Positions 26,746 through 47,288 of a stretch of DNA of 64,000 nucleotides are shown one piece after another. The notes beneath the pieces are model-generated. The model was not told the origin of the DNA. It ran no database searches and was given only the letters and a program-made list of their open reading frames with translations. The position numbers and the translations under genes are program-made. The stretch lies in NCBI GenBank assembly GCA_963722795.1, contig CAVROD010000001.1, positions 642,976 to 706,975 of the forward strand. The letters are read 5' to 3'. Origin of the DNA: an uncultured Actinomycetes bacterium (GTDB taxonomy: Bacteria; Actinomycetota; UBA4738; HRBIN12). The first letter of the stretch is position 1; the number at the start of each line of letters is the position of its first letter.

Positions 26746-29298
26746 CTAGGCCTCCGTCGTCGCGGCGGTCGGCGGCGGCGGGGCCGGCTCGCTCACGCTC
26801 GAGGCCGCCTTCTTCGCGGTCACCTTCTTCGCCGTGGTCTTCTTCCGCGTCGTCTTCTTCGCGGCGGTCTTCTTCTTCGCCGTCGCCTTCTTGGCGGTGG
26901 TCTTCTTCTTGGCGGCGCGGGCGGCACGGGCGGCGGCCTTCGCCTCGCGGGCGGCGGTCTCGGCCTCGACGTCGCCGTCCTTCGTCACGTTGAACTCGAG
27001 GTCGAGCTCGGCGCCGCACCCCCAGCACTTCAGCGACTTGGGCCGGCGCAGCAACAGTGAGCCGCACTGCGGGCACGGGCGATCCTTCTCGGGCGGATTG
27101 CCCACGGCGCAGTCGCAGTCGGGGTAACGGCTGCAGCTGTAGAAGATGGAGCCGAACCGACTGCGCTTCTCGATCAGCTCGCCCTCGCCGCACTGGGGGC
27201 AGGTGACGCCGGTCGACACGGGCGGGTCCTTCTTGATGTAGCGGCAGTCGGGATAACCGCTGCAGCCGGTGAACGGACCGTAGCGGCCCACGCGCCGCTG
27301 CAACTGCTTGCCGCACTCGGGACACGTCTCGTCGAGCATCTCGGGCTCGGGCCGCACGCTGCCGTCCATGTTGCGGATGTAGCGGCATTCCGGGTAGTTC
27401 GTGCAGCCCACGAACTTGCCGTAGCGACCGAGCTTCACCTCGAGCGTGCCGGGCTCGCGCCCCTCGGTCGGGCACAGCGGACACGCCTCGTCGAGCTCCT
27501 CGCTGAACCGCTCGAACGAGTGCTCGGCCTTCTCGAGGGCACGCTCGAACGGGCCGTAGAACTCCTCGAGCATCGTGATCTTGCGCAGGTCGCCCTCGGC
27601 GATGTCGTCGAGCGTCTTCTCCATGTACGCGGTGAACGTCACGTCGACCACGTCGGGGAAGTGCTCGATCAGCTTGTCGGTGACGACCTCGCCGGTGTCG
27701 GTCGGGCGGAAGCGCTTGTCCTCGAGTGTCACGTACTCGCGCCGCTGGATCGTGTCGATGATCGAGGCGTAGGTCGAGGGGCGGCCGATGCCGAGCTCCT
27801 CGAGCGTCTTCACGAGCGAGGCCTCGGAGAAACGCGGCGGCGGCTGGGTGAAGTGCTGTTCGGGCAGCACGTCGAGCATGCGAAGGAGCTGCTCGACGGT
27901 GAGCACCGGCAAGGTCGACTCGGCGTCCTCGTCGGGACCCTCGTCGCGGCCTTCCTTGTAGACGCGGATGAACCCGTCGAAGGTCATCGTCTGGCCGGTG
28001 GCACGCAGGCCGTAGGTGACCGGCGCCGCGTCGCCGTTCGACGCTGCGCCGTCGCCTCGACGTCGATGCCGACCTGGTCGAAGCGCGCCTCGGCCATCTG
28101 GGTGGCCATCGTGCGCTGCCAGATCAGGGTGTACAGGCGCAGCTGGTCGCGATCGAGCGTGGCGGCCACCCTTGCCGGCGTGCGCATCACGCTCGTGGGT
28201 CGCACGGCCTCGTGCGCTTCCTGCGCGTTGCGACTGCGCGTCTTGTACCGGCGGGGCTCGGCGAGCGTGTATCGCTCCCCGTACTCGGTCTTCACGAGCT
28301 CGGCCACCTCGCGCAGCGCGGTATCGGCGATGTTCACCGAGTCGGTTCGCATGTAGGTGATGAGCCCGACGGTGCCCTCGCCGGGAAGGTCGACGCCTTC
28401 ATAGAGGCGCTGGGCGAGGGTCATCGTCTTGCGGGCGGTGAACCCGAGCTTGCGCGCGGCTTCCTGCTGCAGGGTCGAGGTCGTGAACGGCGGCGCCGGC
28501 GAGCGCTTGCGCTCCTTCTTCTCGACGTTCGTGACGCGGTACGCCGCGCGGCGCAGGCGCTCGACGTGCTCGGCCGCCTGGGCTTCCTCGGACAGCAGCA
28601 CGCCCTTCTTCTCGGGCGAGGCTGCGAGCCTTGCCCTCGGGCACCTGGGTGAGCCGGGCGGTGAACGGCTGCTCGGGACCGTCGCCGGGCGTGAGGCGGA
28701 CGTCGACGCTCCAGTACTCGACCGGCACGAACGCTCGGATCTCACGCTCCCGCTCGACGATGAGCCGCACGGCGACCGACTGCACGCGGCCCGCCGACAG
28801 ACCGGGGCGCACCCGCTTCCACAGCAGGGGCGAGATGCGGAAGCCCACGAGCCGGTCGAGGATGCGGCGGGCCTCCTGGGCGTCGTAGAGCTGCAGGTCG
28901 ATGGCGCGCGGCTGGCCGAAGGCCTCGAGGATCGCGTCGCGGGTGATCTCGGTGAAGGTGACGCGCTTGGCGGTCGTCGGGTCGACGCCGAGCAGGCTGG
29001 CCACGTGATAGGCGATCGCCTCGCCCTCGCGGTCGTAGTCCGTCGCGAGGATCAGGTCGCCCGAGCCCGCCTTCATCACCTTCTTCAGTTCGCTGAGGTG
29101 CCGCTTGGAATCCTCGGGCACCACGTAGTCGGGGGTGAAGGCGTGCTCGACGTCGACGCCGAGGCCCCCGTACCCCTTGCCCAGGTCACGGATGTGCCCA
29201 TAGGAAGCACGGACGGCGTAGTCGCCGCCCAGGTACTTCTCGATCGTCTTCGCCTTCGCGGGCGATTCGACGACCACGAGCGTCCTTCCGTTGGCCAT
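26746..29298 (-). CDS. topA: DNA topoisomerase I (2 frameshifts in this assembly)
   Basis: The Toprim N-terminus is MANGRTLVVVESPAKAKTIEKYLG..ATDYDREGEAIA. The active-site region is GLITYMRTDS. There are four C-terminal Zn-ribbon-derived repeats and an actinobacterial Lys-rich tail (KKKTTAKKATAKKKTAAKK). The gene is split over ORFs 28399..29298, 27984..28745 and 26746..27987, with shifts near 28630 and 28055. Confidence 0.9.
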
Positions 29299-29484
29299 GG
29301 CGGGGAACCTTTACGGGTCGGTGGGGACGGGTGTCAAGCCCGGTGTCGCACGGGGAACCCAGCGGCGACCGTACCACCGTGTCGCAACTCCACCGTGCAC
29401 GGTCACGTGCCGAGACCTCGTCCGGAGGCTCCGCAACGCGCTGGTACGGTCCACATATTCCCGAGGTCGTGGAGCGGCACACGC

Positions 29485-30689: not shown

Positions 30690-33056
30690 TCAGCCGGAAG
30701 AGGGCGCGGTGGCATCATCGTGCGCGGCGCGCGACGTCTCGAGCCGGTAGGCGACGCTCGTGAGCAGCACCCGTTCCTCGAACAGGAACAGGCGCTTGAC
30801 GAACAGCGCGGTCTGCCCGTGCAGCGGCAGCTGCCACCACCTCGCGACCACGTACTCCGGCACCACGACGTTCACGACCGTGTCGCCACGATCGGTGTAG
30901 CGGCGCACCTCTTCGAGCATGGGGGTCGACAGGTCGCGGAACGGCGCCTCGACGATGTCGAGCGGCACGCCTTCCACCACGTCGAACCAGTCGTCGCCGA
31001 CCACGAGCGCCGCCTCGGGGTCGAGATCGAAGTACACCGCGCGCGTCACCGTGGCGTCGAGCGTGCGCGCGTAGTTCACCGCGCGCACCGACACGTCGTT
31101 CACCGACGAGAGGAACACGAGCGTCACGGTGCGCTGCGGGATGAGCGGCTTGCCGCCGGCGGCCGACGGCGTGCCTTCCTCGACCACGACCGGCACGTCG
31201 GTGACCACGACGTTGCGGGTGCGAAGCAGGCTCGCCTTGAGCCGCACGAGGTCACGGCTGTGCACCAGGTAGGAGAACAGCCGTCGTGACCGGAGCACCT
31301 CGGGCACGACCACCGTGACGAAGTCGTCGGCGCCACGATCGATGCCCTCGATCAGCGCACGGATGCCGCCCGTGAGGTCCGACGCCGGGATGGCCTCGAG
31401 GTCGGGGATGCCCGGGCCGACGAAGGTGCGCCACCTCGCCTGCACCTTGGCCGCCACGGCGTCGTCGCGGCTCGGGAAGACGGCCCGGATGTCCTCGGGT
31501 CGGAACGAGCGCAGGTAGCCCACCGCTTCGGCCGTGGCCACGTCGAAGTCGCGCACGAGCAGCACGACGTGGTTGCTGCCCGGCGCGCCCGGTCGCACCC
31601 GGCCGGCATCGAGCTGGCGTTTCACGTTCACGTAGTGATGGTGGATCGAGTAGAAGATCGGCACGAGCAGCGCCATGATCAGGATCGAGAGCCACGCCCC
31701 GCTCGACCACTTGGACGCCGCCACGACGATGAGCACGACGAACGTCGTGACCGCGCCGATCGCGTTGATCACGATCGAACGGCGCCACCCCTTCATCGCG
31801 GCGTCGCCCGTGCGGCCCTCGGCGATCCAGTGCTTCACCATGCCGGACTGCGAGAGCGTGAACGACGTGAACACCCCCACCACGTAGAGCCCGATCACGG
31901 CGTTGAGGTTCGCGTCGAAGATGTAGATCATCAGCGCCGACAGCAACCCGAGCACCAGCACTCCGTTGGAGAAGACGAGGCGGTCGCCGCGGTTCACGAA
32001 CTGGTTCGGCAGGTACCGGTCGCGCGCGAGGATCGACGCGAGCCGCGGGAAGTCCTGATAGGCGGTGTTCGCGGCGAGGATCAGGATCGCCGCGGTGAAC
32101 ACCTGCACGACGTAGAAGCCGATCGAGCCCTCGCCGAAGACGGCGATCGCGATCTGGGCGAGCACCGAGCGTTCCTCGCTCGCGATCACACCCTCGACGT
32201 GCGTGGCGAGCCAGGAGATGCCGAGGAACATCGTGATCGCGATCGCGCCCATGATCGCGAGCGTCGACGCCGCGTTGTGCGCCTGCGGCCGCTTGAACGC
32301 CGGCACGCCGTTCGAGATGGCCTCGACGCCGGTGAGGGCCGTCGCCCCCGACGAGAACGCCTTCAGCAACACGAAGAGCCCGACCGCGCCCGCGGTCGAG
32401 GCCGCGTCGTGGATCGGCTCCACGTCGACGTCCACCGCAGGGCATCCCCCGAGGCACTGGCCGAGGCCGAGCACGAGCAATGCACCGATCGACAGCACGA
32501 AGCCGTACGTCGGGATCGCGAACAGCACGCCCGATTCCTTCGAGCCACGCAGGTTCGCGAGGGTGACGAAGGCGACGAAGAAGACGCACAGCACCACGGC
32601 GTGCTCGTTGGCCACGGGCAGCGCCGACCCGATCGCGAACACGCCGGCCACGATCGAGACGACCACGGTCATCATGTAGTCGAACAGCAGCGCCGCGGCG
32701 GCGACGAGACCGGGGAACTGCCCCAGGTTCTCTCGGCTCACGATGTAGGCGCCGCCACCGCCCGGGTAGGCGCGCACCGTCTGGCGGTACGAGGCGATCA
32801 CGAGCGCCATCAACAACGACACGGCGACGGCGATCGGCACCACGTACTGCTGCGGGGCCGCCGTCGCCACCGTGAGCACCAGCAGGATCTCGCCGGTCGC
32901 GTACGCCACCGACGAGAGCGCGTCGGAAGCGAAGACGGGCAGCGCGAGCACCTTCGGCAGCAACGTGTGCTCGAGGCGCGCGCTCGAGAAGGCGCGGCCG
33001 AGCATGACCCGCTTCAGGACGCCGGAGGACGACCCGGGCGATTCGATCTTGGCCAT
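30690..33056 (-). CDS. APC-superfamily permease with duplicated C-terminal cytoplasmic module (paralog a, intact; Rv2690c-like)
   Basis: ATG 33056 (MAKIESPGSS) lies within the artefactually long ORF 30690..34160. The 12-TM core shows LPVFASDALSSVAYATGE, SYRQTVRAYPGGGGAYIV, AFSSGATALTGVEAISNG and ILILAANTAYQDFPRLASILARD. The tail is about 300 aa and carries two related repeats. Confidence 0.8.
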   Translation of the reverse strand: MAKIESPGSSSGVLKRVMLGRAFSSARLEHTLLPKVLALPVFASDALSSVAYATGEILLVLTVATAAPQQYVVPIAVAVSLLMALVIASYRQTVRAYPGGGGAYIVSRENLGQFPGLVAAAALLFDYMMTVVVSIVAGVFAIGSALPVANEHAVVLCVFFVAFVTLANLRGSKESGVLFAIPTYGFVLSIGALLVLGLGQCLGGCPAVDVDVEPIHDAASTAGAVGLFVLLKAFSSGATALTGVEAISNGVPAFKRPQAHNAASTLAIMGAIAITMFLGISWLATHVEGVIASEERSVLAQIAIAVFGEGSIGFYVVQVFTAAILILAANTAYQDFPRLASILARDRYLPNQFVNRGDRLVFSNGVLVLGLLSALMIYIFDANLNAVIGLYVVGVFTSFTLSQSGMVKHWIAEGRTGDAAMKGWRRSIVINAIGAVTTFVVLIVVAASKWSSGAWLSILIMALLVPIFYSIHHHYVNVKRQLDAGRVRPGAPGSNHVVLLVRDFDVATAEAVGYLRSFRPEDIRAVFPSRDDAVAAKVQARWRTFVGPGIPDLEAIPASDLTGGIRALIEGIDRGADDFVTVVVPEVLRSRRLFSYLVHSRDLVRLKASLLRTRNVVVTDVPVVVEEGTPSAAGGKPLIPQRTVTLVFLSSVNDVSVRAVNYARTLDATVTRAVYFDLDPEAALVVGDDWFDVVEGVPLDIVEAPFRDLSTPMLEEVRRYTDRGDTVVNVVVPEYVVARWWQLPLHGQTALFVKRLFLFEERVLLTSVAYRLETSRAAHDDATAPSSG

Positions 33057-33067
33057 AGGCTTGCAGC

Positions 33068-35429
33068 CTACGCCGTGCCGACACCCTCGGGAGCCGGGTC
33101 GGCGTCGTCGCCCACCTCGGGTGCGGCGAGGTGGAACGGCACGCTCGTCACGACCACGCCGGGCTCGAACAGCAGCACCCGCTTGAAGAACAGCGCGGTC
33201 TGGTTGTGCAAGAGGCTCTCCCACCAATGTCGCGGCACGAGCTCGGGCAGCACGACGGTGACCACGGTGTCGCCTCGATCGGTATGCGCGCGGATCTCTG
33301 CCAGCAGCGGCGGACCGTAGTCGCGGAACGGCGCCTCGACCAGCACGAGCGGCACGTCGAGCTGGCGTTCGTGCCACTCGTCGACGACCGCCTCGACCTC
33401 GTCGGGGTCGGTCACCATGTAGATGGCCGCGATCTCGGTCGGGTGCAGCGACTTCCCGTAGATCACCGCGCGCACCGTGGGGTCGTGCACGGCCGAGACG
33501 GGCACGAGCACCACCGAGCGCTCGGGCTCGACGGGACGGTCGCTCGGCCACGCGGAGCGCGATTCCGACGGCACGAGCGGCACGTCGGTCACGACGACCC
33601 GCGGCTCGAACAGCAAGCGCCGTCTTCAGCAGGAACGCCTCCCGGTGACGCAGGAACTGCCAGATCGAGTTGCGCGGCAGCAGCTCGGGGATCACGACGG
33701 TGAGGAAGCGCTCGCGCTCGTGGCGAGGGAGCGCTCGCACGAAGCGCCGCACCGAACGCACGAGATGGCGGTCGGCGCCCTCGAGCGGCTCGAGGTCGCC
33801 CATGCGGGGGGCGACGACCGACCACTCGGCGGCGACCGCCTCGAACGACCCCGGCGCACCGACGTGCAGGGCTCGGAAGGCGACCGGTCGCACCGCGCGC
33901 AGGTAGGCCACGGCGTCGCGCGTCGCGGGCCCGAGGTCGGGCACGAGCAGCAGCATCGTGCCGGACGCGGCGTCGCGGCCCGTGAGGCGCCGAGCCTTCA
34001 GCGCGGCGGCGACGTGCTCGTAGTGGCGGTGCACCGCCCAGAAGAACAGCACGATGAACGGCATCGCGACGATCACGATCCACGCGCCCTTGGCGAACTT
34101 CGTGATCGTGACCACGACGAGCACGATGCCGGTCGTGGCGGCGCCGACGCCGTTGATCACCGCGCTGCGCTGCCACGAGCCCTCGCTTGGTGCGCATCCA
34201 CCGCCGCACCATGCCGGCCTGCGACAGGGTGAACGCGGTGAACACGCCGACCACGTAGAGCTGGATCAGCCGGGTGAGGTTCGCGTCGAACGCCCAGATC
34301 AAGACGGCCGCGAGGCCCGCCAGCACGACGACGCCGTTGGAGAAGACGAGCCGGTCGCCGCGGTTGCGGAACTGCGACGGCATGAACCGGTCGCGAGCCA
34401 GGATCGACGCGAGCCGCGGGAAGTCCTGGAACGCCGTGTTCGCGGCCAGGATCAGGATGCCGGCGGTGAATACCTGCAGCAGCAGGAACATGAAGCCCCC
34501 ACCGAAGACCGTGTCGCCGATCTGCGCCAGCACCGGCAGCTCGTGCGCGATGTCCTCGGTGATGCGCACGTGCAGCAGCTGCGAGAGCGCCGTGATGCCG
34601 AGGAACATCACGATCGACATCGCGCCCATCACGGCGAGCGTGGTCGCCGCGTTCTTGGCCTGCGGACGCCGGAACGCCTGCACCCCGTCGGCGATCGCCT
34701 CGACGCCGGTGAGCGCCGTCGCGCCCGACGAGAACGCCCGCGCGATGAGGAAGAGGGACAAGGTGTGCTCGACGTCAGCGGCAGGTCGGCCGTCTCGGCG
34801 AGCGGGCACCCGCCGAGGCAGCGCACGAAGCCCGTCACGAGCGTGATCGCGATCATCAGCACGAAGCCGTACGTGGGGATCGCGAAGAGCGAACCGGCTT
34901 CCTTCACGCCTCGCAGGTTCGCGAGCGTGACGAACGCGACCAGCACGATCGCGATGGGCACACGCAGCGGCACCAAGGTCTCCGGGGCGACCGAGGCGAT
35001 CGCCGTCGTGCCCGCCGTGATGCTCACCGCCACCGTCAGGACGTAGTCGGTGAGGATCGCGGCGGCCGCCACCAGGCCGGGCAGCGTGCCGAGGTTCTCG
35101 CGGGCCACGATGTAGGAGCCTCCGCCGGTCGGGTAGGCGCGCACCGTCTGGCGATACGACGTCACGACGATCGCGAGCAGGAGCGCGATCGCGATCGCGA
35201 TCGGCAGGCGCAGCGTCAACGCTCCCGCGCCGGCCGCGACCAGCACGAGCATCATCTCCTCGGTCGCGTACGCGTTCGAGGAGAGCGGGTCCGAGGAGAA
35301 GACGGGCAGCGCCAGGAACTTCGGCAGCAGCTGGTGTTCGGCCTTGTCGGAGGCGATCGCCCGCCCCAGGAACAGGCGCTTCAGCGGCCCGCCGCCGACG
35401 CGGCGAGGCAGGTCGAGCTCAGCCGGCAC
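33068..35429 (-). CDS. APC-superfamily permease, paralog b (3 frameshifts in this assembly)
   Basis: The pieces come from ORF 34629..35642 (N-terminal TMs), ORF 33589..34809 (AFSSGATALTGVEAIADG, ILILAANTAFQDFPRLASILARD), the N-terminal part of ORF 30690..34160, and ORF 33068..33616 (C-terminal repeat). The shifts are near 34780, 34178 and 33618. The proposed GTG start at 35429 is 44 nt downstream of the regulator stop. Confidence 0.75.
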
Positions 35430-35473
35430 CGCGGCATGTTCGCACGTCGCGGCCCCGGCGACGAGCCGGAGCG

Positions 35474-36163
35474 CTACCCGGAGGGCTCGGCCACCCAGCG
35501 GTAGCCGACGCCCGGCTCCGTGACGATGAGGGCCGGCGCCTGCGCGTCGTCGCCGAGCTTCTTGCGCAAGGCCCGCACGTACGTGCGCAGGTAGGTCGTC
35601 TCGGTGCCGTAGCCCTGACCCCACACCTTCCGCAGCAGCCACTGGTGGGTGAGCAGCTTGCCCGGGTTCGTGACGAGAGCCTCGAGCAACCCGTACTCGG
35701 TGGGGGTCAGCCGGATCTGCTCGCCTCCGAGCGTCACGAGACGCTTCGGCAGGTCGACCTCGAGCGTGGCGAACCGCAGCACGGGGGAGGCGGGTTCGTC
35801 GGTCTGCTTGCGTCGCATCGCCGCCCGTGCCCGCGCGAGCAGCTCCTCCATGCCGAACGGCTTCGTGACGTAGTCGTCGGCGCCTGCATCGAGCGCCGCG
35901 ACCTTGTCGGACTGCGATTCGCGCACCGACAGCACGATCACCGGCACCTCGCTGAACGCCCGCACGCGCTTGATCACCTCGGTGCCGTCGAGGTCGGGCA
36001 GGCCGAGGTCGAGCAGCACGAGATCGGGCGCCTGCTCGGCGGCACCGACCACGCCTTCTTCACCGGTGCCGACCGTGACGACCTCGTAGCCATGGGCCTC
36101 GAGGCTCGTGCGCAGCGCCCGCCGGATCTGCGGCTCGTCGTCGACCACGAGCACCCGGGTCAT
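35474..36163 (-). CDS. OmpR-family response regulator, KdpE-like
   Basis: REC motifs VLVVDDEPQIRR, DLVLLDLGLPDLDG and DDYVTKPF. Winged helix: LTPTEYGLLEALVTNPGKLLTHQWLLRKVWG. Its start overlaps the kinase stop (ATGA at 36160-36163). Confidence 0.85.
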   Translation of the reverse strand: MTRVLVVDDEPQIRRALRTSLEAHGYEVVTVGTGEEGVVGAAEQAPDLVLLDLGLPDLDGTEVIKRVRAFSEVPVIVLSVRESQSDKVAALDAGADDYVTKPFGMEELLARARAAMRRKQTDEPASPVLRFATLEVDLPKRLVTLGGEQIRLTPTEYGLLEALVTNPGKLLTHQWLLRKVWGQGYGTETTYLRTYVRALRKKLGDDAQAPALIVTEPGVGYRWVAEPSG

Positions 36164-37713
36164 GCGCGCGCCTCGCGATCGGCGGCCGGGACGATCGGCG
36201 GATCGGAGCGCGGCGGCGCTGCATCGAACGCGTCGCGCTCGAGCGAGGCCGGGACGCTCGGACCATCGATCGGGATCTCGAACGCGAACGTGGCGCCGCC
36301 CCCGGGTGTGTCCTCGGTCCAGATGCGTCCGCCGTGCGCGGTCACGATGGCGTTCGCGATCGCGAGCCCGAGGCCCGTGCCCGGGGAATCGGGGATCGAG
36401 GTGCCCCGGTAGAACGCTTCGAAGACCCGCTCGCGGTCATCGGCCGGCACGCCCGGGCCGTGGTCGCGCACCCGCACCGCGACGCGGTCACCGGCCGGCT
36501 CGATCGAGACCCGAACCTCGCCGCCGAGCGGCGAATGACGTGCGGCGTTCTCGAGCAGGTTCGTCATCACCTGGTCGAGCTGCATCTCGTCGACCGCGAC
36601 CGACGGCACGTCGTCGGCGATGTCGAGGGTGACGCGCACGTCGACGAGCCGTGGCGCGAGCCGGGCGACCACCACCTCGGCGATCTCGTCGAGGCCGGCC
36701 TCGTGCCGCGTGGGCGTGAGGGCCCCCGCTCTGATGCGCGCGAGGTCGAGGATGTTGCCGACCAGCCGGTTGAGACGGTCGGTCTCCTCGAGGATCGTCG
36801 TGAGCAGCTCGCGTTCCTGCGCCGGGTCGTGCACCGCGGCTGTGTCGAGCAAGCTCGTCACGCCCGCCTTGATCGAGGCGAGCGGCGTGCGGAAGTCATG
36901 GGTCACCGAACTGAACATCGCCGCGCGCAGCTGGTTCGTCTCGGCGTCGAGCTGGGCGAGCCGCGCGCGGGCGTCGAGCCGCGCGCGGTCGAGCGCGGCG
37001 GCGGCCTGCTTCGACGCCGCCTCGAGCAACAGGTGCTCATGGGGTCCGAGCGGCCGCCGCCCCGACGGCCGCTCGACCCGCAGGGTGCCGAACGACACCG
37101 GCCCCACCACGAGCGGCACGACGGTGTCGGGCCCGCCCGGCGTGAGCCCGGGCTGCACCGCCCGTGCGTGCAGCTGGGTGCCGTCGAGCTCGACGCGCAC
37201 CTCCGCTTCGACGAGGCCGAACGGTTCGAGCAGCACGCGGACGAAGTCGTCGAGCACGCGATCGGGCACCTCACCCGAGACGAACCGCGACGAGAGATGC
37301 CCGAGCAACCTCGCCTCGCGCTCACGCCGCGAGGCGCGCGCCCGTTCCTCCGCGGCGCCCCCGACGAGGATGCCCACCACGAGCGCCACGGCGAGGAAGA
37401 CGAGGGCGGTGAGGACCTCCTCGGTGCCGTCGAATCCGAGCTCGAACCGCGGGGATCCGTAGAGCAGCGGGAGGCCGATCGAGGACAGGGTCGCGGCGAG
37501 CAGGCCCGCCCACAGACCTCCCGCCACCGCGGCGATCACGATCGCGAGCAGGAACAGCGCGATGGCGGCCGCCGGCCCGTTGCGTGCGAGCGGGATCGAC
37601 GCCACGCCGGCGACCGCGGGCGCGACCACGGCGATGACGGCCCCGCGACCACTCAGCCCGCGGACGCGTCGGCGCTCCGGCTCGCCCACTCCCAGTTCCA
37701 TGGCAGGTCCCAT
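36160..37713 (-). CDS. sensor histidine kinase resembling the C-terminal half of KdpD (DUF4118 TM module + GAF-like + HisKA + HATPase_c)
   Basis: DUF4118-like helices IALFLLAIVIAAVAGGLWAGLLAATLSS. H-box FSSVTHDFRTPLASIKAG. ATP-binding boxes NLLENAARHSP, DHGPGVP and GTGLGLAIANAIVTAHGG. No N-terminal KdpD/Usp cytoplasmic half is present. The start is uncertain (37713 or 37701). Confidence 0.8.
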   Translation of the reverse strand: MGPAMELGVGEPERRRVRGLSGRGAVIAVVAPAVAGVASIPLARNGPAAAIALFLLAIVIAAVAGGLWAGLLAATLSSIGLPLLYGSPRFELGFDGTEEVLTALVFLAVALVVGILVGGAAEERARASRREREARLLGHLSSRFVSGEVPDRVLDDFVRVLLEPFGLVEAEVRVELDGTQLHARAVQPGLTPGGPDTVVPLVVGPVSFGTLRVERPSGRRPLGPHEHLLLEAASKQAAAALDRARLDARARLAQLDAETNQLRAAMFSSVTHDFRTPLASIKAGVTSLLDTAAVHDPAQERELLTTILEETDRLNRLVGNILDLARIRAGALTPTRHEAGLDEIAEVVVARLAPRLVDVRVTLDIADDVPSVAVDEMQLDQVMTNLLENAARHSPLGGEVRVSIEPAGDRVAVRVRDHGPGVPADDRERVFEAFYRGTSIPDSPGTGLGLAIANAIVTAHGGRIWTEDTPGGGATFAFEIPIDGPSVPASLERDAFDAAPPRSDPPIVPAADREARA

Positions 37714-37841
37714 CGTGCCATGCGTATCGGCACGGATCGGTCTTCACGTGATCTTCACGCCCCGGGGCGGTTCCTTCACGCAGCGCTCACAGGGCTCCGA
37801 CGACACTCTCATCAGGAGTTGAACCCATCCTCCGAACCAAG

Positions 37842-37902
37842 CCCGGAGGCCGGACGGAGCCCTCCAGCTCGCCCGACCTCCGGGCCCCGTCCTTTTCCGG
37901 GG
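37842..37902 (-). promoter_or_regulatory. two consecutive GC-rich hairpins in the divergent kdpD-like/trkA intergenic region
   Basis: Arm 37842-37853 pairs with arm 37873-37884 (12 bp). The single non-Watson-Crick position is G.U on the minus-strand transcript but C.A on the plus strand. It is immediately followed by CCCCG (37885-89) / CGGGG (37898-902). Confidence 0.35.
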
Positions 37903-37958
37903 TCGTTCCGTCCCCCGACGACTGTCGCGGCGGCGACCGTGGACTAGGATGCCCCGCG

Positions 37959-38621
37959 ATGCGAGTGATCATCATGGGTTGTGGCCGCGTCGGCTCCGAG
38001 CTCTCGCACGAGTTGCTCGACGCCGGACACGAGGTGGTCGTGATCGACAAGAACGCCGAGGCGTTCTTCCGCTACCCCCCGGGCGACGGCGCGCAGACCG
38101 TCGTGGGCCTCGGGTTCGATCGCGACGTGCTCGAGGAAGCCGGCATCGAGCAGGCCGATGCCTTCGTGGCGGTCTCGAGCGGCGACAACTCCAACATCGT
38201 CTCGGCCCGGGTGGCGCTCGAGAACTACCACGTGCCCAAGGTCGTGGCGCGCATCTACGACCCGCGGCGAGCCGACATCTACGAGCGACTCAACATCCCG
38301 ACGGTCGCGACCACGACCTGGGGCGTGAAGCAGATCCAACTGATGCTGCTCCACGACCGTCAGGAGATCCGGGAGGCGCTCGGCGGCGGCGACCTGCTGC
38401 GCATGCGCATCCCGGTCAATGCCCACATGGTGGGCAAGGCCGCGACGTCGTTCAACGTCGATGGCAAGATCCTGGTCGCCGGCGTCTCGCGCGGCGGCGG
38501 CGGGTTCCTCCCGACCGCCGCAAGCACCCTGCAGGAGGGCGACTACCTCGTGGTGATGCTCACGAAGGACGGCATGGACACGCTCGACGAGGTCTTCGAA
38601 CCGGTCACGGAGCACCACTGA
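37959..38621 (+). CDS. trkA: TrkA/RCK K+ transport regulatory protein (CeoB-like)
   Basis: The Rossmann motif is MRVIIMGCGRVGSELSHELLDAGHEVVVID. A TrkA-C domain follows (LLRMRIPVNAHMVGKA ... EGDYLVVML). Confidence 0.85.
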   Translation: MRVIIMGCGRVGSELSHELLDAGHEVVVIDKNAEAFFRYPPGDGAQTVVGLGFDRDVLEEAGIEQADAFVAVSSGDNSNIVSARVALENYHVPKVVARIYDPRRADIYERLNIPTVATTTWGVKQIQLMLLHDRQEIREALGGGDLLRMRIPVNAHMVGKAATSFNVDGKILVAGVSRGGGGFLPTAASTLQEGDYLVVMLTKDGMDTLDEVFEPVTEHH

Positions 38622-39342
38622 TGAGGGTCATCGTGACGGGCGGCGGCGCGGTCGGACGGCATCTCGCCGTCGACCTCTTCGAACGCGGGCACGAGGTCAC
38701 GCTGATCGAGCAGAAGCGCAGCCTCGTCGAGAAGCTGCAGGTCTGGGCCCCCGGCGTGCGGGTGATGCTCGGCGATGCGTGCGAGCCGTGGGTGCTCGAA
38801 GGGGCCGACACCTCGAGCGCCGACGTGCTCGTCGCGGCGACCGGCGACGACGAGGACAACCTCGTCACGTCGCTGCTCGCGAAGCAGGAGTTCGCCGTGC
38901 CCCGTGTGCTTGCTCGCGTGAACCACCCGAAGAACGAATGGCTGTTCACCGATCAGTGGGGCGTCGACGCCGAGGTCTCTCCGCCGCACATCCTGACCGC
39001 CATGGTCGAGGAAGCCGTGACGGTCGGCGACCTCGTCCGGCTGATCCGGCTCGAGCAGCGGCCAGGTCTCGATCGTGGAGATGACGCTTGCCCGACGGGT
39101 CGCCGTCGGTGGGCCGTGCGGTCTACGAGCTGCGCCTGCCCGGCGACGCCGTGATCGTGGCGATCCTGCGCGAGGGACACGTCGTGATCCCCCAGCCCGA
39201 GACCGTGTTCGCCGCCGGCGACGAGGTGCTCGCCCTCGCGAGCGGCGCCGTCGAGCGCGAGCTGCGCGACGCCGTCGTGGGAGCCGACATGCCCGGCGGC
39301 GTGCCGACCGACACCATCGACGGTGCGGGCGGGGTGCGCTGA
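38621..39342 (+). CDS. trkA: second TrkA/RCK protein (CeoC-like; 2 frameshifts in this assembly)
   Basis: The ATG overlaps the upstream stop (TGATG). The TrkA-N domain is MRVIVTGGGAVGRHLAVDLFERGHEVTLIE. The TrkA-C piece (VEMTLA, SVGRAVYELRLPGDAVIVAILREGHVVIPQPETVFAAGDEVLAL) lies in other frames, with shifts near 39058 and 39090. Confidence 0.75.
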
Positions 39343-39343
39343 G

Positions 39344-40187
39344 TCAGACGCCGGTCACCGGCGGCGCCATCGCGGCCCGCAACGCCCGGTCGCGTTCGAG
39401 CAGCAGCGCGAGCTGGTTGCCGAACGACTCGAGGATGCGTCGCTCCGAGGGACTGAGCGGCTCGCGCACCCCCCGCATCACGAGCAATCCCAGGTTGCGC
39501 CGGCCCACGTTGAGCGGCAGCCGCTCGACGCCGTCACCGCCGGTGTGCGGCACGCTGCCCGTGTCGCCGCCCGCGGTCGCCTGCTCGACGAGCCCGCGGT
39601 CCGGGCCTTCCTGCACGTAGAGGGCACCGTCGATGAATCCGAACGTCGCGACGACCACTCGCAGCACGCCTTCGTACGGATGCTCCACCGCCTGCGGCTC
39701 GATCAACAACCGCGTGAGGTCTTGCTGGCGTCGCAGCTCCTCCGCCCGGGCTTCGGCCGCTCGCGCGCGCGCCTCGGCGCGCCCGACCAGCACAGAGATC
39801 AGCACGCTCAACCCGAGGAAGACGAACAGCACGATCACGTCGTGCGCTTTGCCGACCGCGAACGTCTTGTACGGGGGAAGGAAGAAGAAGTTGAACGCGA
39901 CGAACGCGAGCACCGAGGCCGCGATGCCAGGTCCGAGCCCACCGAGCCCCACGCAGGCGAGCACGAGGAGCAGAGAATCCGAACCCCGTGGCGACGGGGT
40001 CGACCCGATCGCGGATCGGCGAGGCCGCGAGCACGATCGTCCCGGTCGCCACGACCGCCAGCGCGTAGGCGGCGGCGAGCCGCGGCGACAGATCGACGGC
40101 GCTGCGAAACGAGCCCGAGGGCGCCGCGTCCGTCCCGTGTCGGTCGGGACGTGCCGGAAGGTGTCTGCGTTCGCCGGCCGTCGTCAT
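39344..40187 (-). CDS. kinase-less DUF4118 + GAF-like membrane sensor (1 frameshift in this assembly)
   Basis: ORF 39344..39964 carries the DUF4118 signature ASVLAFVAFNFFFLPPYKTFAV, a coiled linker and a GAF-like end, and stops with no H-box or ATPase. The N-terminal TM part (MTTAGERRH ... LAAAYALAVVATGTIVLAA) is in ORF 39534..40319, with a shift near 39972. Confidence 0.65.
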
Positions 40188-42559
40188 GGCACCGAGCCTA
40201 CCCCCTAGCCATAAGATGCCCGGGTGGAACGCACGCCGGCCCGCGAGGCGACCCTCGGACGAGATCTGGGCGGCTGGATCGAAGCTCGTCCTGCTCGGGC
40301 GGGCGCTCGCCTCGCACAAGGCGGAGCATCAGCTGCTGCCGAAGCTGCTCGCGTTGCCCGTCTTCGCCTCCGATCAGCTCTCGTCCGTCGCCTACGCCAC
40401 CGAGGAGATGCTGCTCGTCCTCGTCCTGGTGGGCTCCTCGGGCATGCCGCTGCTCACGCCGCTGTCGATCGGCGTCGCCGCGCTCCTCGTGGTGGTGATC
40501 GCCTCGTATCGCCAGACCGTTCGGGAGTATCCGCAGGGAGGCGGCTCCTACATCGTCGCTCGCGAGAACCTCGGGCTGATCCCCGGGCTCACGGCCGCAG
40601 GCGCGATCCAGATCTCCTACGTGCTCACCGTCGCGGTCAGCGTGACGGCGGGGTCGATCGCGGTCACGTCGGCGGCGACGGGCCTCGCGCCGTACAAGCT
40701 GCCGATGGCGATCGCGTTCATCGTGCTGATCACGCTGGCGAACCTGCGGGGCGCGAAGGAGGCGGGCCGGCTCTTCGCGATCCCGACCTACGGCTTCGTC
40801 GTGGTCGTCGGCGTCACCCTCGCCTGGGGCGCGTGGCGATGCGTGAGCGGGGGCTGCCCGCAGGCCGACACCGCCGATCTGCCGCTCGAAGCGGTTTCGG
40901 GGCTCACGGTGCTGTTCGTCCTCCGGGCGTTCTCCTCGGGCGCGACTGCGCTCACCGGCGTCGAGGCGATCGCCGACGGCGTGCAGGCGTTCCGCCGGCC
41001 CCAATCGAAGAACGCCGCATCGACCCTGCTGCTGATGGGCTCGATGAGCATCCCGATGTTCCTCGGGATCTCGGCCATGGCGTCGGCTCTCGGCGTGCGC
41101 ACGAACGAGCACATCGCAGCCTCGAGGTCGGTGCTCTCGCAGATCGGCGAGACCGTCTTCGGCGACGGACCGATGTTCATCGTGCTGCAGGTCTTCACGG
41201 CTCGATCCTGATCCTCGCCGCGAACACCGCCTACCAGGACTTCCCGCGGCTCGCGTCGATCCTCGCGCGCGACGGGTTCATGCCGTCGCAGTTCCGCAAC
41301 CGCGGAGACCGTCTCGTGTTCTCCAACGGCATCGCCGTGCTCTCGGCGCTCGCCGCTGTGCTCGTATGGCTCTTCGATGCCGACCTGTCCCGGCTGATCC
41401 AGCTCTACGTCGTCGGCGTGTTCGTCGCCCTCACCCTGTCGCAGGCCGGCATGGTGCGACGCTGGTGGAGGGTGCGTACCCAGGGCTGGCGGTGGAAGGC
41501 GGCGATCAACGTGGTCGGCGCCACCACCACCGGCTTGGTGTTCGGGATCGTGGTGGCGACGCGGTTCGCCCTCGGCGCCTGGATGGTGATCGCGGCGCTG
41601 CCCATCGTGATCGGACAGTTCCTCCTCGTGGCCCGCCATTACCGGGCGGTCGGCACGTTCGCTCGACATCGCGATGCCCGCCGACGCCGTCGCCGAGAAC
41701 GAGGTGCTGTTCCTCGTGCCCGACCTCAGCCCGGCGACGCGTGACGCCATCGCGTACCTGCGAGCGATCAGGCCCGAACGCGTCACCGCCCTGCACATAG
41801 GGCCGGCGGCATCGTTCGACCTCGCGGCCGCCGAGTGGGCGCTGGCGGCCCCGCGCCTCGGCGAACTCCAACGCCTGGCCGGCGCCGACGAGCACCTCGT
41901 TCGATCGCTGCGATCGCTCCTCCACGGCCGAACACGCGCCGGCGACGGGTTCATCACCGTGATCGTGCCCGAGAACGCCGCCGATCGATCCCTGATGCGG
42001 CAGGTGATCCACAACCGGCGGTCTGTTCCTCCTGAAGACCTCGATGCTGTTCGAGCGCGGCGTCGTCGTGACCGACGTGCCGCTGCTCCCGCAGGAGCCG
42101 GTGAGCACCGGGCGACCGCACGAGCCGGAGCGCAGCTTCGTGATCGTGCCGGTGTCGAACGCGAGCTACGCCACCGCGCGGGCGGTCGCGTACGCTCGAT
42201 CGCTGCACGCCGTGAAGGTCGAGGCGCTGTTCCTCGTGACCGACAATGCCGATATCGAGCCGGTCGCCTCGGCGTGGGTCGAGCGAGGCTTCGAGGTGCC
42301 GCTCGTGATGGTGGAGGCGCCGTTCCGAGAGCTGGGCGTCCCGCTGCTCGAGGAGATCCGCACGCACACCTCGCGCGGCGACACGATCGTGACGGTCGTC
42401 CTGCCTGAGATCGTGCCGCGCCGATGGTGGCAGTCACTGCTCCACGGTCAGACCGCCCTGTACTTCAAACGCCTGCTGCTGTTCGAGCCGCACGTGGTCG
42501 TCACGAGCGTGCCGCTGCATCTGCAGGAGCCTGAAACTCCCGCTCCCGCTACGCGCTGA
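40186..42559 (+). CDS. APC-superfamily permease, paralog c (3 frameshifts in this assembly)
   Basis: Core motifs LPVFASDQLSSVAYATEE, SYRQTVREYPQGGGSYIV, AFSSGATALTGVEAIADG and ILILAANTAYQDFPRLASILARD. The two-repeat tail ends at VVVTSVPLHL. The shifts are near 41205, 41660 and 42020. An alternative start is ATG 40216 (MPGW). Confidence 0.75.
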
Positions 42560-42914
42560 ACTCCAGACGGGGGTTGATCATCTTCGGGGGGCCCCCGCCT
42601 CGCGACTCGCCGAGCACGCCCTCGACGACCACCTTCGTGCCGAGCGAGAAGCCGCCGATGCCGCGGCGGCCCATGAACACCACGACGGCCTCACCGGTGC
42701 CATCGCTCACGAGCGCCTCGAGCGACTCGTGACCGCTCATCGGCAGCACGGTGATGCGCCTGATCACCCCCGCGATCTTGATGGTCGAGCGCAGGGGTGC
42801 ATCGCCGAGGGGCACGGCGTCGGCGATCGAGCGGGCCCAGTCCTGGGTCTCGGCCGCGAGGCGCGTCTCGTCGCTCTCGGTCAGCCGGTCGAGCCAGCGA
42901 CGGAGCCCGCTCAT
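42549..42914 (-). CDS. OB-fold domain protein (Rv2694c-like)
   Basis: 121 aa with the core IKIAGVIRRITVLP ... LEALVSDGTGEAVVVFMGRRGIGGFSLGTKVVVEGV, typical of the small OB-fold proteins found next to actinobacterial trkA genes. This assignment is from memory. Confidence 0.6.
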   Translation of the reverse strand: MSGLRRWLDRLTESDETRLAAETQDWARSIADAVPLGDAPLRSTIKIAGVIRRITVLPMSGHESLEALVSDGTGEAVVVFMGRRGIGGFSLGTKVVVEGVLGESRGGGPPKMINPRLEFSA

Positions 42915-42942: not shown

Positions 42943-45237
42943 TCAGACGGCCGTGGCGGCCTTGTCGGCGAACTCCGCCTCGGCGTCGAGCTCGGACTTG
43001 CGCGACTTCGACACGTAGATCGAGGAGCCGAGCACCACCGCCGCCACCAAGCCCACCGCGATGCGGATCGCCGTCTCGTCGGCGTACTCGACCACGAGCG
43101 GCGCGATCAGCAGGGCCACGAGGTTCATGACCTTGATGAGCGGGTTCAACGCCGGGCCGGCGGTGTCCTTGAACGGGTCGCCGACGGTGTCGCCGATGAC
43201 CGCCGCCTTGTGCGCGTCGGAGCCCTTGCCGCCGTAGTGGCCCTCCTCGATGAACTTCTTCGCGTTGTCCCACGCGCCGCCCGAGTTCGAGAGCATCACG
43301 GCCATGAGCTGGCCGGTGACGATCGCACCGGCGAGGAAGCCGCCGAGCGCTTCTTCCTTCAACAGGAAGCCCGCGATGACCGGCGAGAGCACCGCCAGCA
43401 AGCCCGGCGTGAGCAGCTCGCGCAGCGACGTCTTCGTGCAGATGTCGACGACGCGCGCGTAGTCGGGCTTCTCGGTGTAGTCCATGATGCCGGGGTGCTC
43501 GCGGAACTGCTTGCGCACCTCCACCACGACCTGCGCGGCCGCGCGGCCGACGGCGCGGATCGCGAGGGAGCTGAACAGGAACGCGATGGTGCCGCCGGCG
43601 AGCAGGCCGACGAGCACGTCTGGCTGGTCGATGCGGATGCCCTCGAAGGTGAAGCCGGCGTCCTTCAGGGCTTCCTCGAAGGAGCCGAACAGCGACGTCG
43701 CGGCGATGACCGCCGTCGCGATCGCGAGGCCCTTGGTGATGGCCTTCGTCGAGTTGCCGACGGCGTCGAGCCCGCCGAGGATCTCGGCCGGGCGGCCCTC
43801 GAACTCACCCGACATCTCCGCGATGCCCTGGGCGTTGTCGCTGATCGGGCCGTAGGTGTCCATCGAGACGACCACGCCCACCGTGGTGAGCATGCCCATG
43901 CCCGACAGGGCGATGAAGTAGAGGCGCTCCGCGAACAGGTTCGAGGAATCGGGGTCGGCGAGCAGGAACGCCGCCATGATCGTGCCGGCCACGACGAGCG
44001 CGGCCCACACGGCTGACTCGAGGCCGACCGAGAAGCCGGAGAGCACCGTCGTGGCGGGGCCGGTGACGGTGGAGTCGGCGACCTCCTTCACCGGCTTGTA
44101 CTTCGTGTCGGTGAAGTACTGCGTGAGGATCTGGATCACCGAGGCGAGCACGAGGCCGATCGCCACGGCGATGCCCGGCCGCCAGCTCTCCATGTAGGTG
44201 ACCGAGATGATCATCACGAGCACGGCGGAGATCACCGCCGACAGGAAGAAGCCGCGGTTGATCGCCTTCATGCCGTGCTCCTCCTCGGAGCGCGGCGTCA
44301 CGGCCATGATGCCGATGATCGACGTGATGACGCCGACCGCGCGCACGAACAGCGGGAACATCACGCCGGCGATCGCGCCGATCTCGCTGTCGGCGAACGC
44401 GGCCGCACCGAGGATCAACGCAGCGACCAGGGTGACCTCGTAGCTCTCGAACAGATCGGCCGCCATGCCGGCGCAGTCGCCCACGTTGTCGCCCACGTTG
44501 TCGGCGATCGTGGCCGCGTTGCGCGGGTCGTCCTCGGGGATGCCCTGCTCGACCTTGCCCACGAGGTCGGCGCCCACGTCGGCCGCCTTCGTGAAGATGC
44601 CGCCGCCGACCCGCATGAACATCGCGAGCAGCGCGCCCCCGAAGCCGAAGCCCACGAGCACGGCCGTGGCATCGCCCTTGAAGATCATCAAGATCAGGGT
44701 CGCGCCGAACAGTCCGAGGCCGACGGTGAACATGCCTGCCACGCCGCCCGCACGGAAGGCGATGGTGAGCGCCTTGCGCAGGCCCGACTCCTTGGCCGCG
44801 TTGGCGGTGCGCACGTTGGCGCGCACGGCGAGCCACATGCCCGCGTACCCGGTGAGCATCGAGGCGCCGGCCCCCAGCAGGAACGCGATCGAGCGCCCGA
44901 CCCTGATGGACAGTTCCGGCGAGAGGCCGAGCAGCGTCGTCGTGACGGCGTCGGAGACCGGCAGCGCGAAGAACAGCACGACGGTCAGGATGCCGAGGAA
45001 GATGCCGAGCGTGCTGAACTGCCGGCTCAGGTAGGCCTTCGCGCCTTCCTGGATGGCCGTCGCGATCTCCTTCATCTTGGGGCTGCCTTCGGGTTCGGCC
45101 AGCACCTGGGCGCGCAGGTACCAGGCGAACGCCAGCGCCACGAGTGAGATCGCCAGCACGATCCACAGCCACGTGTTCTCGAACGACCCGAAGGTGACCT
45201 CGAGCGGGCCGCCTTCCTGGGCAAGGACGCGGAACAT
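42943..45237 (-). CDS. hppA: membrane-bound H+-translocating pyrophosphatase
   Basis: ATG 45237 (MFRVLAQEGG) lies within ORF 42943..45465. Signature motifs are GGIFTKAADVGADLVGKVE, DNVGDNVGDCAGMAADLFESY and GDTVGDPFKDTAGPALNPLIKV. There are about 16 TM helices. Confidence 0.9.
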   Translation of the reverse strand: MFRVLAQEGGPLEVTFGSFENTWLWIVLAISLVALAFAWYLRAQVLAEPEGSPKMKEIATAIQEGAKAYLSRQFSTLGIFLGILTVVLFFALPVSDAVTTTLLGLSPELSIRVGRSIAFLLGAGASMLTGYAGMWLAVRANVRTANAAKESGLRKALTIAFRAGGVAGMFTVGLGLFGATLILMIFKGDATAVLVGFGFGGALLAMFMRVGGGIFTKAADVGADLVGKVEQGIPEDDPRNAATIADNVGDNVGDCAGMAADLFESYEVTLVAALILGAAAFADSEIGAIAGVMFPLFVRAVGVITSIIGIMAVTPRSEEEHGMKAINRGFFLSAVISAVLVMIISVTYMESWRPGIAVAIGLVLASVIQILTQYFTDTKYKPVKEVADSTVTGPATTVLSGFSVGLESAVWAALVVAGTIMAAFLLADPDSSNLFAERLYFIALSGMGMLTTVGVVVSMDTYGPISDNAQGIAEMSGEFEGRPAEILGGLDAVGNSTKAITKGLAIATAVIAATSLFGSFEEALKDAGFTFEGIRIDQPDVLVGLLAGGTIAFLFSSLAIRAVGRAAAQVVVEVRKQFREHPGIMDYTEKPDYARVVDICTKTSLRELLTPGLLAVLSPVIAGFLLKEEALGGFLAGAIVTGQLMAVMLSNSGGAWDNAKKFIEEGHYGGKGSDAHKAAVIGDTVGDPFKDTAGPALNPLIKVMNLVALLIAPLVVEYADETAIRIAVGLVAAVVLGSSIYVSKSRKSELDAEAEFADKAATAV

Positions 45238-45867: not shown

Positions 45868-47288
45868 TCGTCATTCGGCTGCGGCTCGGTCGGACCCTTG
45901 GCGACCGCCCCCGGCGACGGGGCCACACGCAGGATCACGTAGCCGAGCACGCCCGCCACCAGCGAGGCGGCGAGGATGGCCGTCTTCGCCTGGTCGAGCA
46001 TCGGCCCCGGTGGGAACGCGAGCTCGGCGATGAAGAGCGCCACCGTGAATCCGATGCCCGCGGTCATGCCCATGCCGGTGAGGTCTCCCCACCCCACGTC
46101 GTCGGCGAGGCTGCCGAGGCCCGAGCGCACCGCGAGGAACGACCCGACGAGCACGCCGAGCGGCTTGCCGAGCACGAGCCCGAAGAAGACGCCCAGGGAG
46201 ACCGGCGCCGTGAGCGCGTCGCCGAGACGGGTGAGGGACAGCTCCACGCCGGCGTTGGCGATGGCGAAGATCGGCAGGATCACGAAGCTCGTCCACGGCA
46301 GCAACGCGTGCTCGGTGCGCGCGAGCGGCGAGACGGCCTCGCGCGAGAGCCAGGCGAGCCGCATCCACCATCGAGCGTCGTCGTCGGCATATCTCGGCTC
46401 GTCGCTCGTCTCGTCGGCGGTACGGCGAGCCTCCTCGCTCACCGCCGCCGGACGCTGGAACGGGATCGCCGGTGTCAGCAACCCGAGCACCACCCCCGCG
46501 ATCGTGGGATGGATACCCGCCTCGTACGTCGCGTACCACAGCGCGGCCCCGAGCACCACGTACACGAGGATGAAGCGGATGTGCACGGCGTTGGCGACCG
46601 CGATCGCACCGACGATGGCGAACGCCACCATCAGGGCGGTGGCCTCCACGCCGCCGGTGTAGAAGATCGCGATCACGATGATCGCCCCGATGTCGTCGAC
46701 GATCGCGAGCGTGAGCAGCAGGGGCTTCAGCCTCGGCGACGCGTACGACGCGGCCAGCGCCAGCACCCCCAGCGCGAACGCGATGTCGGTGGCCATCGGG
46801 ATACCCCACCCGCGCCCGGCCTCACCGCCGCCCGCGATCGCCAGATAGATCAGCGCCGGCGCCACCATGCCGCCGACCGCCGCCAGGATCGGAAGGGTCG
46901 CCACCCTGAGCTTCTGCAGTTCCCCCGAGACGACCTCGCGCTTGATCTCGAGGCCCACCACGAGGAAGAAGAGCGCCATGAGTCCGTCGTTCACCCAGAA
47001 GTGCAGGTCCTTCTGCAGGTCGACGAGCGAGCCGAGCCGCACGGTGAACTCGGTCGCGAAGAGGGACTCGTAGCCGGCCTTCCAGGGAGAATTGGCCCAG
47101 ACGAGTGCGAGGACCACCGCCACGAACAACAACGACGCGCTGGCCGTCGAGGTCTGCAAGAACTCCTGCAGGGGCTGTACGACCCGCCGCGGGACCAACC
47201 GCTGCGACCGCGACCAGGGGGGCTTCACCTCGTCGAAGCCGTCGTGACGGGAACCCGGGGGCGGTGTGTGATCGACCGGATCGGACAT
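45861..47288 (-). CDS. nhaA: Na+/H+ antiporter NhaA
   Basis: NhaA signatures are WVNDGLMALFFLVVGLEIKRE and the ATDIAFALGVLA motif. There are about 12 TM helices. Confidence 0.9.
   Translation of the reverse strand: MSDPVDHTPPPGSRHDGFDEVKPPWSRSQRLVPRRVVQPLQEFLQTSTASASLLFVAVVLALVWANSPWKAGYESLFATEFTVRLGSLVDLQKDLHFWVNDGLMALFFLVVGLEIKREVVSGELQKLRVATLPILAAVGGMVAPALIYLAIAGGGEAGRGWGIPMATDIAFALGVLALAASYASPRLKPLLLTLAIVDDIGAIIVIAIFYTGGVEATALMVAFAIVGAIAVANAVHIRFILVYVVLGAALWYATYEAGIHPTIAGVVLGLLTPAIPFQRPAAVSEEARRTADETSDEPRYADDDARWWMRLAWLSREAVSPLARTEHALLPWTSFVILPIFAIANAGVELSLTRLGDALTAPVSLGVFFGLVLGKPLGVLVGSFLAVRSGLGSLADDVGWGDLTGMGMTAGIGFTVALFIAELAFPPGPMLDQAKTAILAASLVAGVLGYVILRVAPSPGAVAKGPTEPQPNDDQ

Follow-up and report, generated by a model that had tools for sequence, protein, structure and literature searches.

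KimA-type transporters in a probable potassium-acquisition island of an uncultured actinobacterium, two of them in a predicted operon with a KdpD-half/KdpE-like system

KimA of Bacillus subtilis is a K+/H+ symporter, established as such between 2017 and 2020, in which the K+ site and its gates are built from D36, Y43, T121, T230 and Y377 with support for the site from S125, E233 couples the proton, and D117 is not needed for transport and is proposed to sense internal K+ (PMC6994465). The pocket for cyclic di-AMP (c-di-AMP) in KimA consists of R337, P479, H579, N580, Q581 and S582, and the cytosolic regulatory domains of the transporter are swapped and lie on the side of the protein at which an RCK ring would bind (PMC10284832). 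In the Kdp system, the N-terminal half of the sensor KdpD has serine-kinase activity directed at KdpB, which it inhibits (PMC11018627). Relatives of these proteins occur side by side in the window, a stretch of 64,000 nucleotides with a GC content of ∼70% from an uncultured Actinomycetes bacterium (GenBank assembly GCA_963722795.1, contig CAVROD010000001.1, positions 642,976 to 706,975). The locus at 30690-42914 of the window is probably a potassium-acquisition island of this high-GC actinobacterium, in which three KimA-type transporters are encoded and two of them are placed under a system made of the kinase half of KdpD and a KdpE-like regulator. KimA-type K+ transport as such is already known; the unusual feature is its operon with a KdpDE-like pair beside orphan TrkA genes. 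A literature search found no description of a KdpD-like kinase that lacks the serine-kinase half and forms an operon, together with a KdpE-like regulator, with KimA-type transporters. The comparison set consists of 80 related genomic loci (uncultured metagenome-assembled genomes, MAGs; labelled L001 and so on), and the nearest relatives of the window are all uncultured soil Actinomycetota.

The three permease genes are paralogues of about 790 codons at 30690-33056 (permease 1; minus strand, 788 aa), 33068-35429 (permease 2; minus strand, 786 aa once repaired) and 40186-42559 (permease 3; plus strand, ∼790 aa once repaired). By homology and modelling, their products are KimA-type K+/H+ symporters, members of the KimA branch of the KUP family. 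A phmmer search of permease 1 against the PDB returns a single match, B. subtilis KimA (6s3k, E = 3e-117), which surpasses by ∼90 orders of magnitude that to AA_permease_2 (E = 9e-28), the sole Pfam family found in a profile search of the permeases. The alignment spans the whole membrane domain of 12 transmembrane helices (permease 1 residues 14-483 against KimA 5-462), with the C-terminal domain matched separately. The AlphaFold model of permease 1 (mean predicted local distance difference test score, pLDDT, 80.1; predicted template-modelling score, pTM, 0.75) divides into a LeuT-fold symporter domain (∼30-483) and two tandem C-terminal alpha/beta domains (∼490-625 and ∼640-771). Its top three Foldseek matches are the KimA structures 8b70, 8b71 and 6s3k (E = 9e-35 to 5e-32, target TM-score 0.72-0.82, identity 31-39%), followed by eukaryotic cation-chloride cotransporters (NKCC, KCC and NCC) at 4e-15 and amino-acid transporters at ∼1e-9; the lead of KimA over every other fold is about 20 orders of magnitude.

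The residues that define K+ transport by KimA are retained as well. D36, Y43, T121, S125, T230, E233 and Y377 are kept in all three paralogues in a comparison that excludes the L030 and Streptomyces permease rows; the counterparts of the K+ and proton residues in permease 1 are D45, Y52, T130, T242, E245 and Y391. The position of D117 is occupied by serine in permease 3. K+ transport is thus the function predicted for the three permeases from KimA homology and the structural model. An earlier reading of the same DNA (the sequence-only reading) had placed the three permease genes where they are found here and had proposed them as translocators of K+ or an osmolyte in a locus without any canonical K+ pore. 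Sequence, fold and K+/H+ residues support K+ translocation, yet this is a known property of the family, and the absence of a pore falls away, as the kinship of the permeases to KimA means that the locus does have a recognized K+ pathway. That reading had also reported no membrane partner for the TrkA proteins. None of ten other window open reading frames (ORFs), chosen mainly as membrane proteins and not an exhaustive set, has a TrkH, KtrB, Kdp, K_trans or channel domain, which agrees with that report as far as TrkH, KtrB and Kdp are concerned; the stated absence of a Kup-type partner does not hold in substance, for the permeases are themselves members of the KUP family through its KimA branch.

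The regulatory part of the permeases diverges from that of KimA. Residues 641-771 of permease 1 align by phmmer to KimA 472-604, the C-terminal alpha/beta (PPAT-like) domain, and a second copy of this domain at ∼490-625 is detected as an internal repeat in tblastn and as a beta-alpha pattern that appears twice in the model. Homologues in Streptomyces, Rhodococcus and Nonomuraea have a single copy, as in KimA. The H, Q and T/S residues of the c-di-AMP pocket are kept in the permeases, P479 is kept only in permeases 2 and 3, and N580 only in permease 2; the equivalents of R337 are N, S and S in permeases 1, 2 and 3. No c-di-AMP (ydaO/kimA) riboswitch is detected with Rfam at gathering thresholds in the whole window or at E <= 1 in 35300-40400.

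Upstream of permeases 2 and 1, on the same minus strand, lie genes for a KdpD-like histidine kinase (36160-37713, 517 aa) and an OmpR/KdpE-like response regulator (35474-36163, 229 aa; Pfam Response_reg and Trans_reg_C). The gaps in the order kinase, regulator, permease 2, permease 1 are -4, 44 and 11 nt, and the two permease genes appear to form one operon with the pair, HK-RR-kimA2-kimA1 (histidine kinase, response regulator and two kimA-like genes), of which permease 1 is the last gene. The kinase contains DUF4118, HisKA and HATPase domains and a weak GAF_3 match below the Pfam cut-off; neither the KdpD N-terminal domain (PF02702) nor a Usp domain is found in it by Pfam, and its best NCBIfam match is to residues 593-884 of the 895 of KdpD. 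The lack of the N-terminal serine-kinase half fits a target other than Kdp, and no Kdp subunit is present next to the kinase and regulator or among the scanned window ORFs, the downstream genes being KimA-like. The gene order HK-RR-kimA(-kimA) recurs in relatives, with a response regulator followed by a KimA-like gene in the same direction and a gap <200 nt on 41 occasions in the related loci.

The kinase gene and the divergent trkA1 gene share a 245-nt region that contains a candidate regulator-binding box (37741-37791, minus strand). Its proximal part is a perfect pair, CGTGAAGA-TCA-CGTGAAGA, at 37741-37759 in the direction of the kinase gene; the pattern CGTGAAGA-N3-CGTGAAGA is a conserved direct repeat with 11-bp phasing. 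A weaker distal pair, TGTGAGCG-N3-CGTGAAGG, follows at 21 and 32 bp upstream of it, which spaces the half-sites by 11, 21 and 11 bp, all in helical phase. The single 8-mer is common in coding sequence and uninformative alone, and no second copy of the double repeat occurs in the window with up to 3 mismatches tolerated. A box in the same orientation precedes the HK-RR-kimA operon in 28 of 38 relatives, some of them with kinases that are only ∼45-60% identical. Across 1.28 Mb of related loci, 21 of the 27 matches with <=2 mismatches lie no more than 260 nt ahead of a kinase gene of this type, and two more do so by inspection. An autoregulated operator of the OmpR family would be expected to look like this, which supports the box as a candidate for one. 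A scan for sigma-70 promoters found none and terminators were no more frequent than by chance, in a scan that is uninformative at 70% GC.

The sequence-only reading had described a kinase equivalent to the C-terminal half of KdpD and a KdpE-like regulator directly upstream of two permeases, with gaps of 44 and 11 nt, and had proposed that this pair controls the permeases. The description is accurate in all these respects, and gene order and the conserved repeat argue well for two-component control of permeases 1 and 2, short of proof; K+ as the signal is suggested by the resemblance to KdpD and KdpE. The LeuT-fold domain of each permease would bind K+ at the Asp/Tyr/Thr/Tyr site, with the proton coupled through the conserved Glu. 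The kinase appears to keep the K+-sensing membrane part and the histidine-kinase half of KdpD, and at low K+ the phosphorylated regulator would most likely bind the phased CGTGAAGA repeats before the operon. Binding would then induce the genes of the regulatory pair and of the two importers, as KdpDE does for kdpFABC.

Several observations weigh against this reading of the locus. No NCBIfam model matches the permeases, for which Pfam gives AA_permease_2 only. The kinase and the regulator both score under the equivalog cut-offs of their families (218.8 bits against 1123 for KdpD; 244.7 bits against 325 for KdpE, the best NCBIfam match of the regulator), which leaves K+ as a putative signal for the pair. 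Only 27 nt separate the box from the ATG annotated as the kinase start, which casts doubt on the start codon or on the arrangement of the promoter. Permease 3 lies outside the operon, and no further copy of the double repeat is found near it or elsewhere in the window with <=3 mismatches, which leaves no evidence that permease 3 shares the operator. Finally, permease 1 is free of indels and its neighbours have three each, a pattern that a uniform error rate would not quite lead one to expect.

Beyond the shared intergenic region lie the RCK genes trkA1 (37959-38621, plus strand; 220 aa, CeoB type) and trkA2 (38621-39342, plus strand; 239 aa once repaired, CeoC type), the start of trkA2 overlapping the stop of trkA1 by 1 nt. 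The two proteins consist of TrkA_N and TrkA_C domains with GxGxxG motifs, as in the RCK cytoplasmic subunits of Trk/Ktr systems. TrkA1 matches the Vibrio TrkA structures 4g65/4j9u (E = 1e-21) as well as NCBIfam TrkA models, and the repaired TrkA2 matches NCBIfam TrkA models over residues 1-213. They are the actinobacterial CeoB/CeoC pair in its usual syntenic block. In Mycobacterium tuberculosis, ceoB is Rv2691 and ceoC is Rv2692, and we take the gene order around them to be Rv2690c-ceoB-ceoC-Rv2693c-Rv2694c. The CeoB/CeoC system matters for host colonization by M. tuberculosis; a literature search found no membrane partner named for CeoBC of this species and no paper that links Rv2690c to KimA. 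A co-essentiality study in M. tuberculosis links ceoB and ceoC to Rv2694c and to the channel-like Rv3200c, in a module in which Rv2690c is not named.

The explanation of the TrkA pair that survives best, plausible though short of probable, is that it works with a membrane protein encoded elsewhere, either TrkH/KtrB or a K+ channel like Rv3200c, and that its adjacency to the permeases reflects shared K+ regulation or inherited synteny. Selection of related loci by TrkA1 gives 43 informative ones, of which only 15 show a KimA-like gene as the neighbour; a TRAM/U5 RNA methyltransferase takes that place in the remaining 28, where DUF3710 and dut follow downstream. It follows that the trkA pair is part of a conserved block of actinobacterial genes (RNA methyltransferase, trkA1, trkA2, DUF3159/OB, DUF3710, dut), which kimA has joined only in some cases. 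The M. tuberculosis module with Rv3200c points in the same direction, as does a 681-aa protein of Streptomyces sp. BHT-5-2 (L088, 5690-7735, plus strand), which is encoded between trkA1 and a KimA-like gene and has two TrkA_N domains and an N-terminal portion of 400 residues with no Pfam match. Against a partner encoded elsewhere stand the scanned window ORFs, among which none was found, and the reported absence of TrkH and KtrB from Streptomyces venezuelae, for which KimA-like proteins are listed (PMC10117811).

The same S. venezuelae report favours a different arrangement, in which the TrkA/RCK pair forms the cytoplasmic gating ring of KimA-type transporters, an RCK-KUP system in place of TrkH or KtrB. 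Of 51 loci selected by their permease, 35 have a KimA-like gene as the 5' neighbour of trkA1, and another 14 have the kinase gene of an HK-RR-kimA operon there, the arrangement of the window. In ∼20 of the 35 the two genes are co-directional (18 with gaps of -3 to 90 nt), and in 15 they are divergent (gaps <=153 nt). The divergent layout of permease and trkA1 is also found in the chromosome of Nonomuraea gerenzanensis, with a looser version in a Streptomyces replicon, and the CeoBC papers found in the search name no membrane partner. The ∼20 co-directional neighbours belong nearly all to a fourth class of KimA paralogues with ∼39% identity to permease 1, which sits directly upstream of trkA1-trkA2 on the same strand (for example L020 4235-6526, L036 3713-6025 and L053 4913-7231). 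This trkA-operonic class and the Nonomuraea homologue keep the K+-site residues and E233 and also retain R337 and N237, which makes them look like the ancestral KimA orthologue.

The trkA-operonic class is, however, absent from the window, and the neighbourhood that prevails in permease-selected loci occurs in only about a third of the TrkA-selected ones, as given above. The swapped cytosolic domains of KimA itself occupy the face on which RCK proteins would dock (PMC10284832), and this domain is doubled here. Plasmid-borne KimA-like genes of Streptomyces and Rhodococcus have no trkA or two-component genes nearby, and the M. tuberculosis co-essentiality data tie ceoB and ceoC to Rv3200c and Rv2694c with Rv2690c unnamed. 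On balance an RCK-KUP gating ring is improbable. The gating of the permeases by RCK proteins that the sequence-only reading had proposed finds support in the gene neighbourhood of permease-selected loci and is not established, given the TrkA-selected ones; for the permeases of the window, direct gating is unlikely. The broader proposition is unlikely too, namely that the orphan CeoB/CeoC pair of many Actinobacteria uses a KimA-type KUP transporter as its membrane partner rather than TrkH or KtrB, and that this lineage adds KdpD-half/KdpE transcriptional control of extra KimA paralogues. It is nevertheless the most valuable lead from the locus, a partly supported and testable link of an orphan CeoB/CeoC-type RCK pair to KimA homologues. 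If true, this would be the first RCK-regulated KUP system, and Rv2690c would be the membrane component so far missing from the mycobacterial "Trk" system; as it stands, the Rv2690c-like KimA homologue is a concrete, only partly supported candidate for the membrane side of CeoB/CeoC.

The reading frames of several genes in the island are interrupted. Frame changes in tblastn and, except for permease 3, base-by-base comparison with the contig L001, the closest relative, place the frameshifts of permease 2 near 34776 (a base missing), 34185 and 33615 (a base extra at each), those of permease 3 near 41200 (a base missing), 41650-41690 and 42024 (a base extra at each), those of trkA2 near 39054 and 39088 (two single-base insertions) and one in the DUF4118 gene near 39974. 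Permease 1 is the only continuous ORF among the three permeases. L001 is 91% identical to the window over ∼13 kb, from which ∼25 single-base indels separate it, and its orthologues of permease 2 (786 aa) and trkA2 (239 aa) are uninterrupted; its DUF4118 orthologue has 273 aa. An uninterrupted orthologue of permease 3, 81% identical, is present in L023. Single-base repair restores ORFs of 786 aa, 790 aa and 239 aa for permease 2, permease 3 and trkA2, respectively.

That permeases 2 and 3 and trkA2 are true pseudogenes of a decaying island, with permease 1 alone functional, is very unlikely. Such decay would account for eight frameshifts in three genes where permease 1, the kinase, the regulator, trkA1 and hppA are uninterrupted. 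However, all broken segments align well to permease 1, retain a GC content at third codon positions of 0.93-0.98 and remain highly similar to unbroken orthologues in L001 and L023, and every change is a single-base indel. Similar indels relative to L001 affect the housekeeping genes topA (three pieces, 26749-29310), MFS-tmk (four pieces, 25027-26694) and holB (23546-24375), and many of the related MAGs come from long-read projects. Since single-base indels also break topA, tmk and holB, the breaks in the permeases and trkA2 are most likely errors of assembly or sequencing and not gene decay; the window assembly as a whole is probably error-prone and derived from long reads. The contrast drawn in the sequence-only reading between an intact permease and the other two describes the reading frames correctly, but the difference is most likely an assembly artefact.

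It is highly improbable that the permeases carry amino acids, polyamines or osmolytes rather than K+: the AA_permease_2 match and the database names "amino acid transporter" and "APC family permease" for homologues would suggest so, but B. subtilis KimA was itself labelled YdaO, an amino acid permease, before K+ import was demonstrated, the KimA match far exceeds the Pfam match, amino-acid transporters are much poorer Foldseek matches, and the K+ site is fully conserved. Those names hide a family of KUP/KimA-type K+ importers that is widespread in Actinobacteria, an annotation trap that is corrected here.

The companion genes of the island vary between relatives. Convergent with trkA2 and conserved in many relatives is a gene for a stand-alone DUF4118 membrane protein (39344 to ∼40166, minus strand, start uncertain), which has a GAF_3 match below the Pfam cut-off at its C-terminus and matches KdpD residues 447-527, the transmembrane and sensor part of KdpD without the kinase. 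An OB-fold protein of 121 aa with a weak Pfam tRNA_anti-codon match is encoded at 42549-42914 (minus strand); in most relatives, and also in Streptomyces and the TrkA-selected metagenome loci, its gene lies between hppA and trkA2. The sequence-only reading presumed this protein to be the equivalent of Rv2694c, the gene that co-essentiality data of M. tuberculosis place with ceoB and ceoC. L001 has a full-length KdpD (848 aa) and KdpE (1-1598) where the window has permease 3, and a Crp-like regulator and a 128-aa gene (3919-5070) between trkA1 and the kinase gene, both of which are lacking from the window (37895-37938). These differences indicate that the island is being rearranged between close relatives.

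The K+ genes are followed by hppA for an H+-pyrophosphatase (from 42943 or 42946 to 45213, minus strand, not frameshifted), which contains a GNSTKA motif that we take to mark the K+-independent type. An NhaA Na+/H+ antiporter (45876-47246, minus strand) and a Na_Ca_ex-type exchanger (49121-50476, plus strand) lie in the same neighbourhood, and together with hppA they flank the K+ genes in a broader ion-homeostasis neighbourhood. Elsewhere in the window, four paralogous sensor kinases of ∼690 aa are encoded at 7723-9789, 9848-11899 and 11911-13995 (minus strand) and at 17369-19384 (plus strand), with LuxR-type regulators near them; by eye and from the annotation of L001 orthologues, their N-termini look multi-transmembrane and their C-termini are of the HisKA_3 type. 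A segment of ∼3 kb (20500-23500) is not present in L001 and has a fragmented coding signal, with a weak M36 peptidase match as its sole Pfam hit.

Compared with described systems, the island has much in common with KimA of B. subtilis, with which the window permeases share the LeuT-fold membrane domain, the K+ site, the proton-coupling E233 and the cytosolic alpha/beta domain after transmembrane helix 12 with its H-x-Q-T/S motif. KimA has 607 aa with one cytosolic domain, whereas the window permeases have ∼790 aa with the domain tandemly duplicated; the window also differs in its three paralogues at one locus, two of them in an operon with a two-component system, and no ydaO/kimA riboswitch is found upstream of its genes by Rfam. 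The locus thus departs from the KimA pattern in three ways: the regulatory domain occurs twice, the arginine of the c-di-AMP pocket and the riboswitch have been lost, and two-component control appears to have been gained. The KdpDE-kdpFABC systems of Escherichia coli and M. tuberculosis likewise place a membrane kinase half and an OmpR-family regulator beside a K+ importer, but their target is a P-type ATPase and that of the window is a KUP/KimA secondary transporter; the phased direct repeats upstream of the window operon are those expected for this regulator family, and L001 carries its full-length KdpD/KdpE pair separately nearby. With TrkAH and KtrAB the window pair has its RCK domain content in common, although as two half-size chains and not as one double-length TrkA, and neither TrkH nor KtrB is among the scanned window ORFs. 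A comparable neighbourhood is that of Rv2690c-Rv2694c in M. tuberculosis (the "Trk system"), which shares tandem RCK genes of ∼220 aa, a convergent DUF4118 gene, an OB-fold gene and a KimA-like permease with the window. The mycobacterial neighbourhood has a single permease; the window instead has a divergent kinase-regulator-kimA-kimA operon and a third paralogue beyond the DUF4118 gene.

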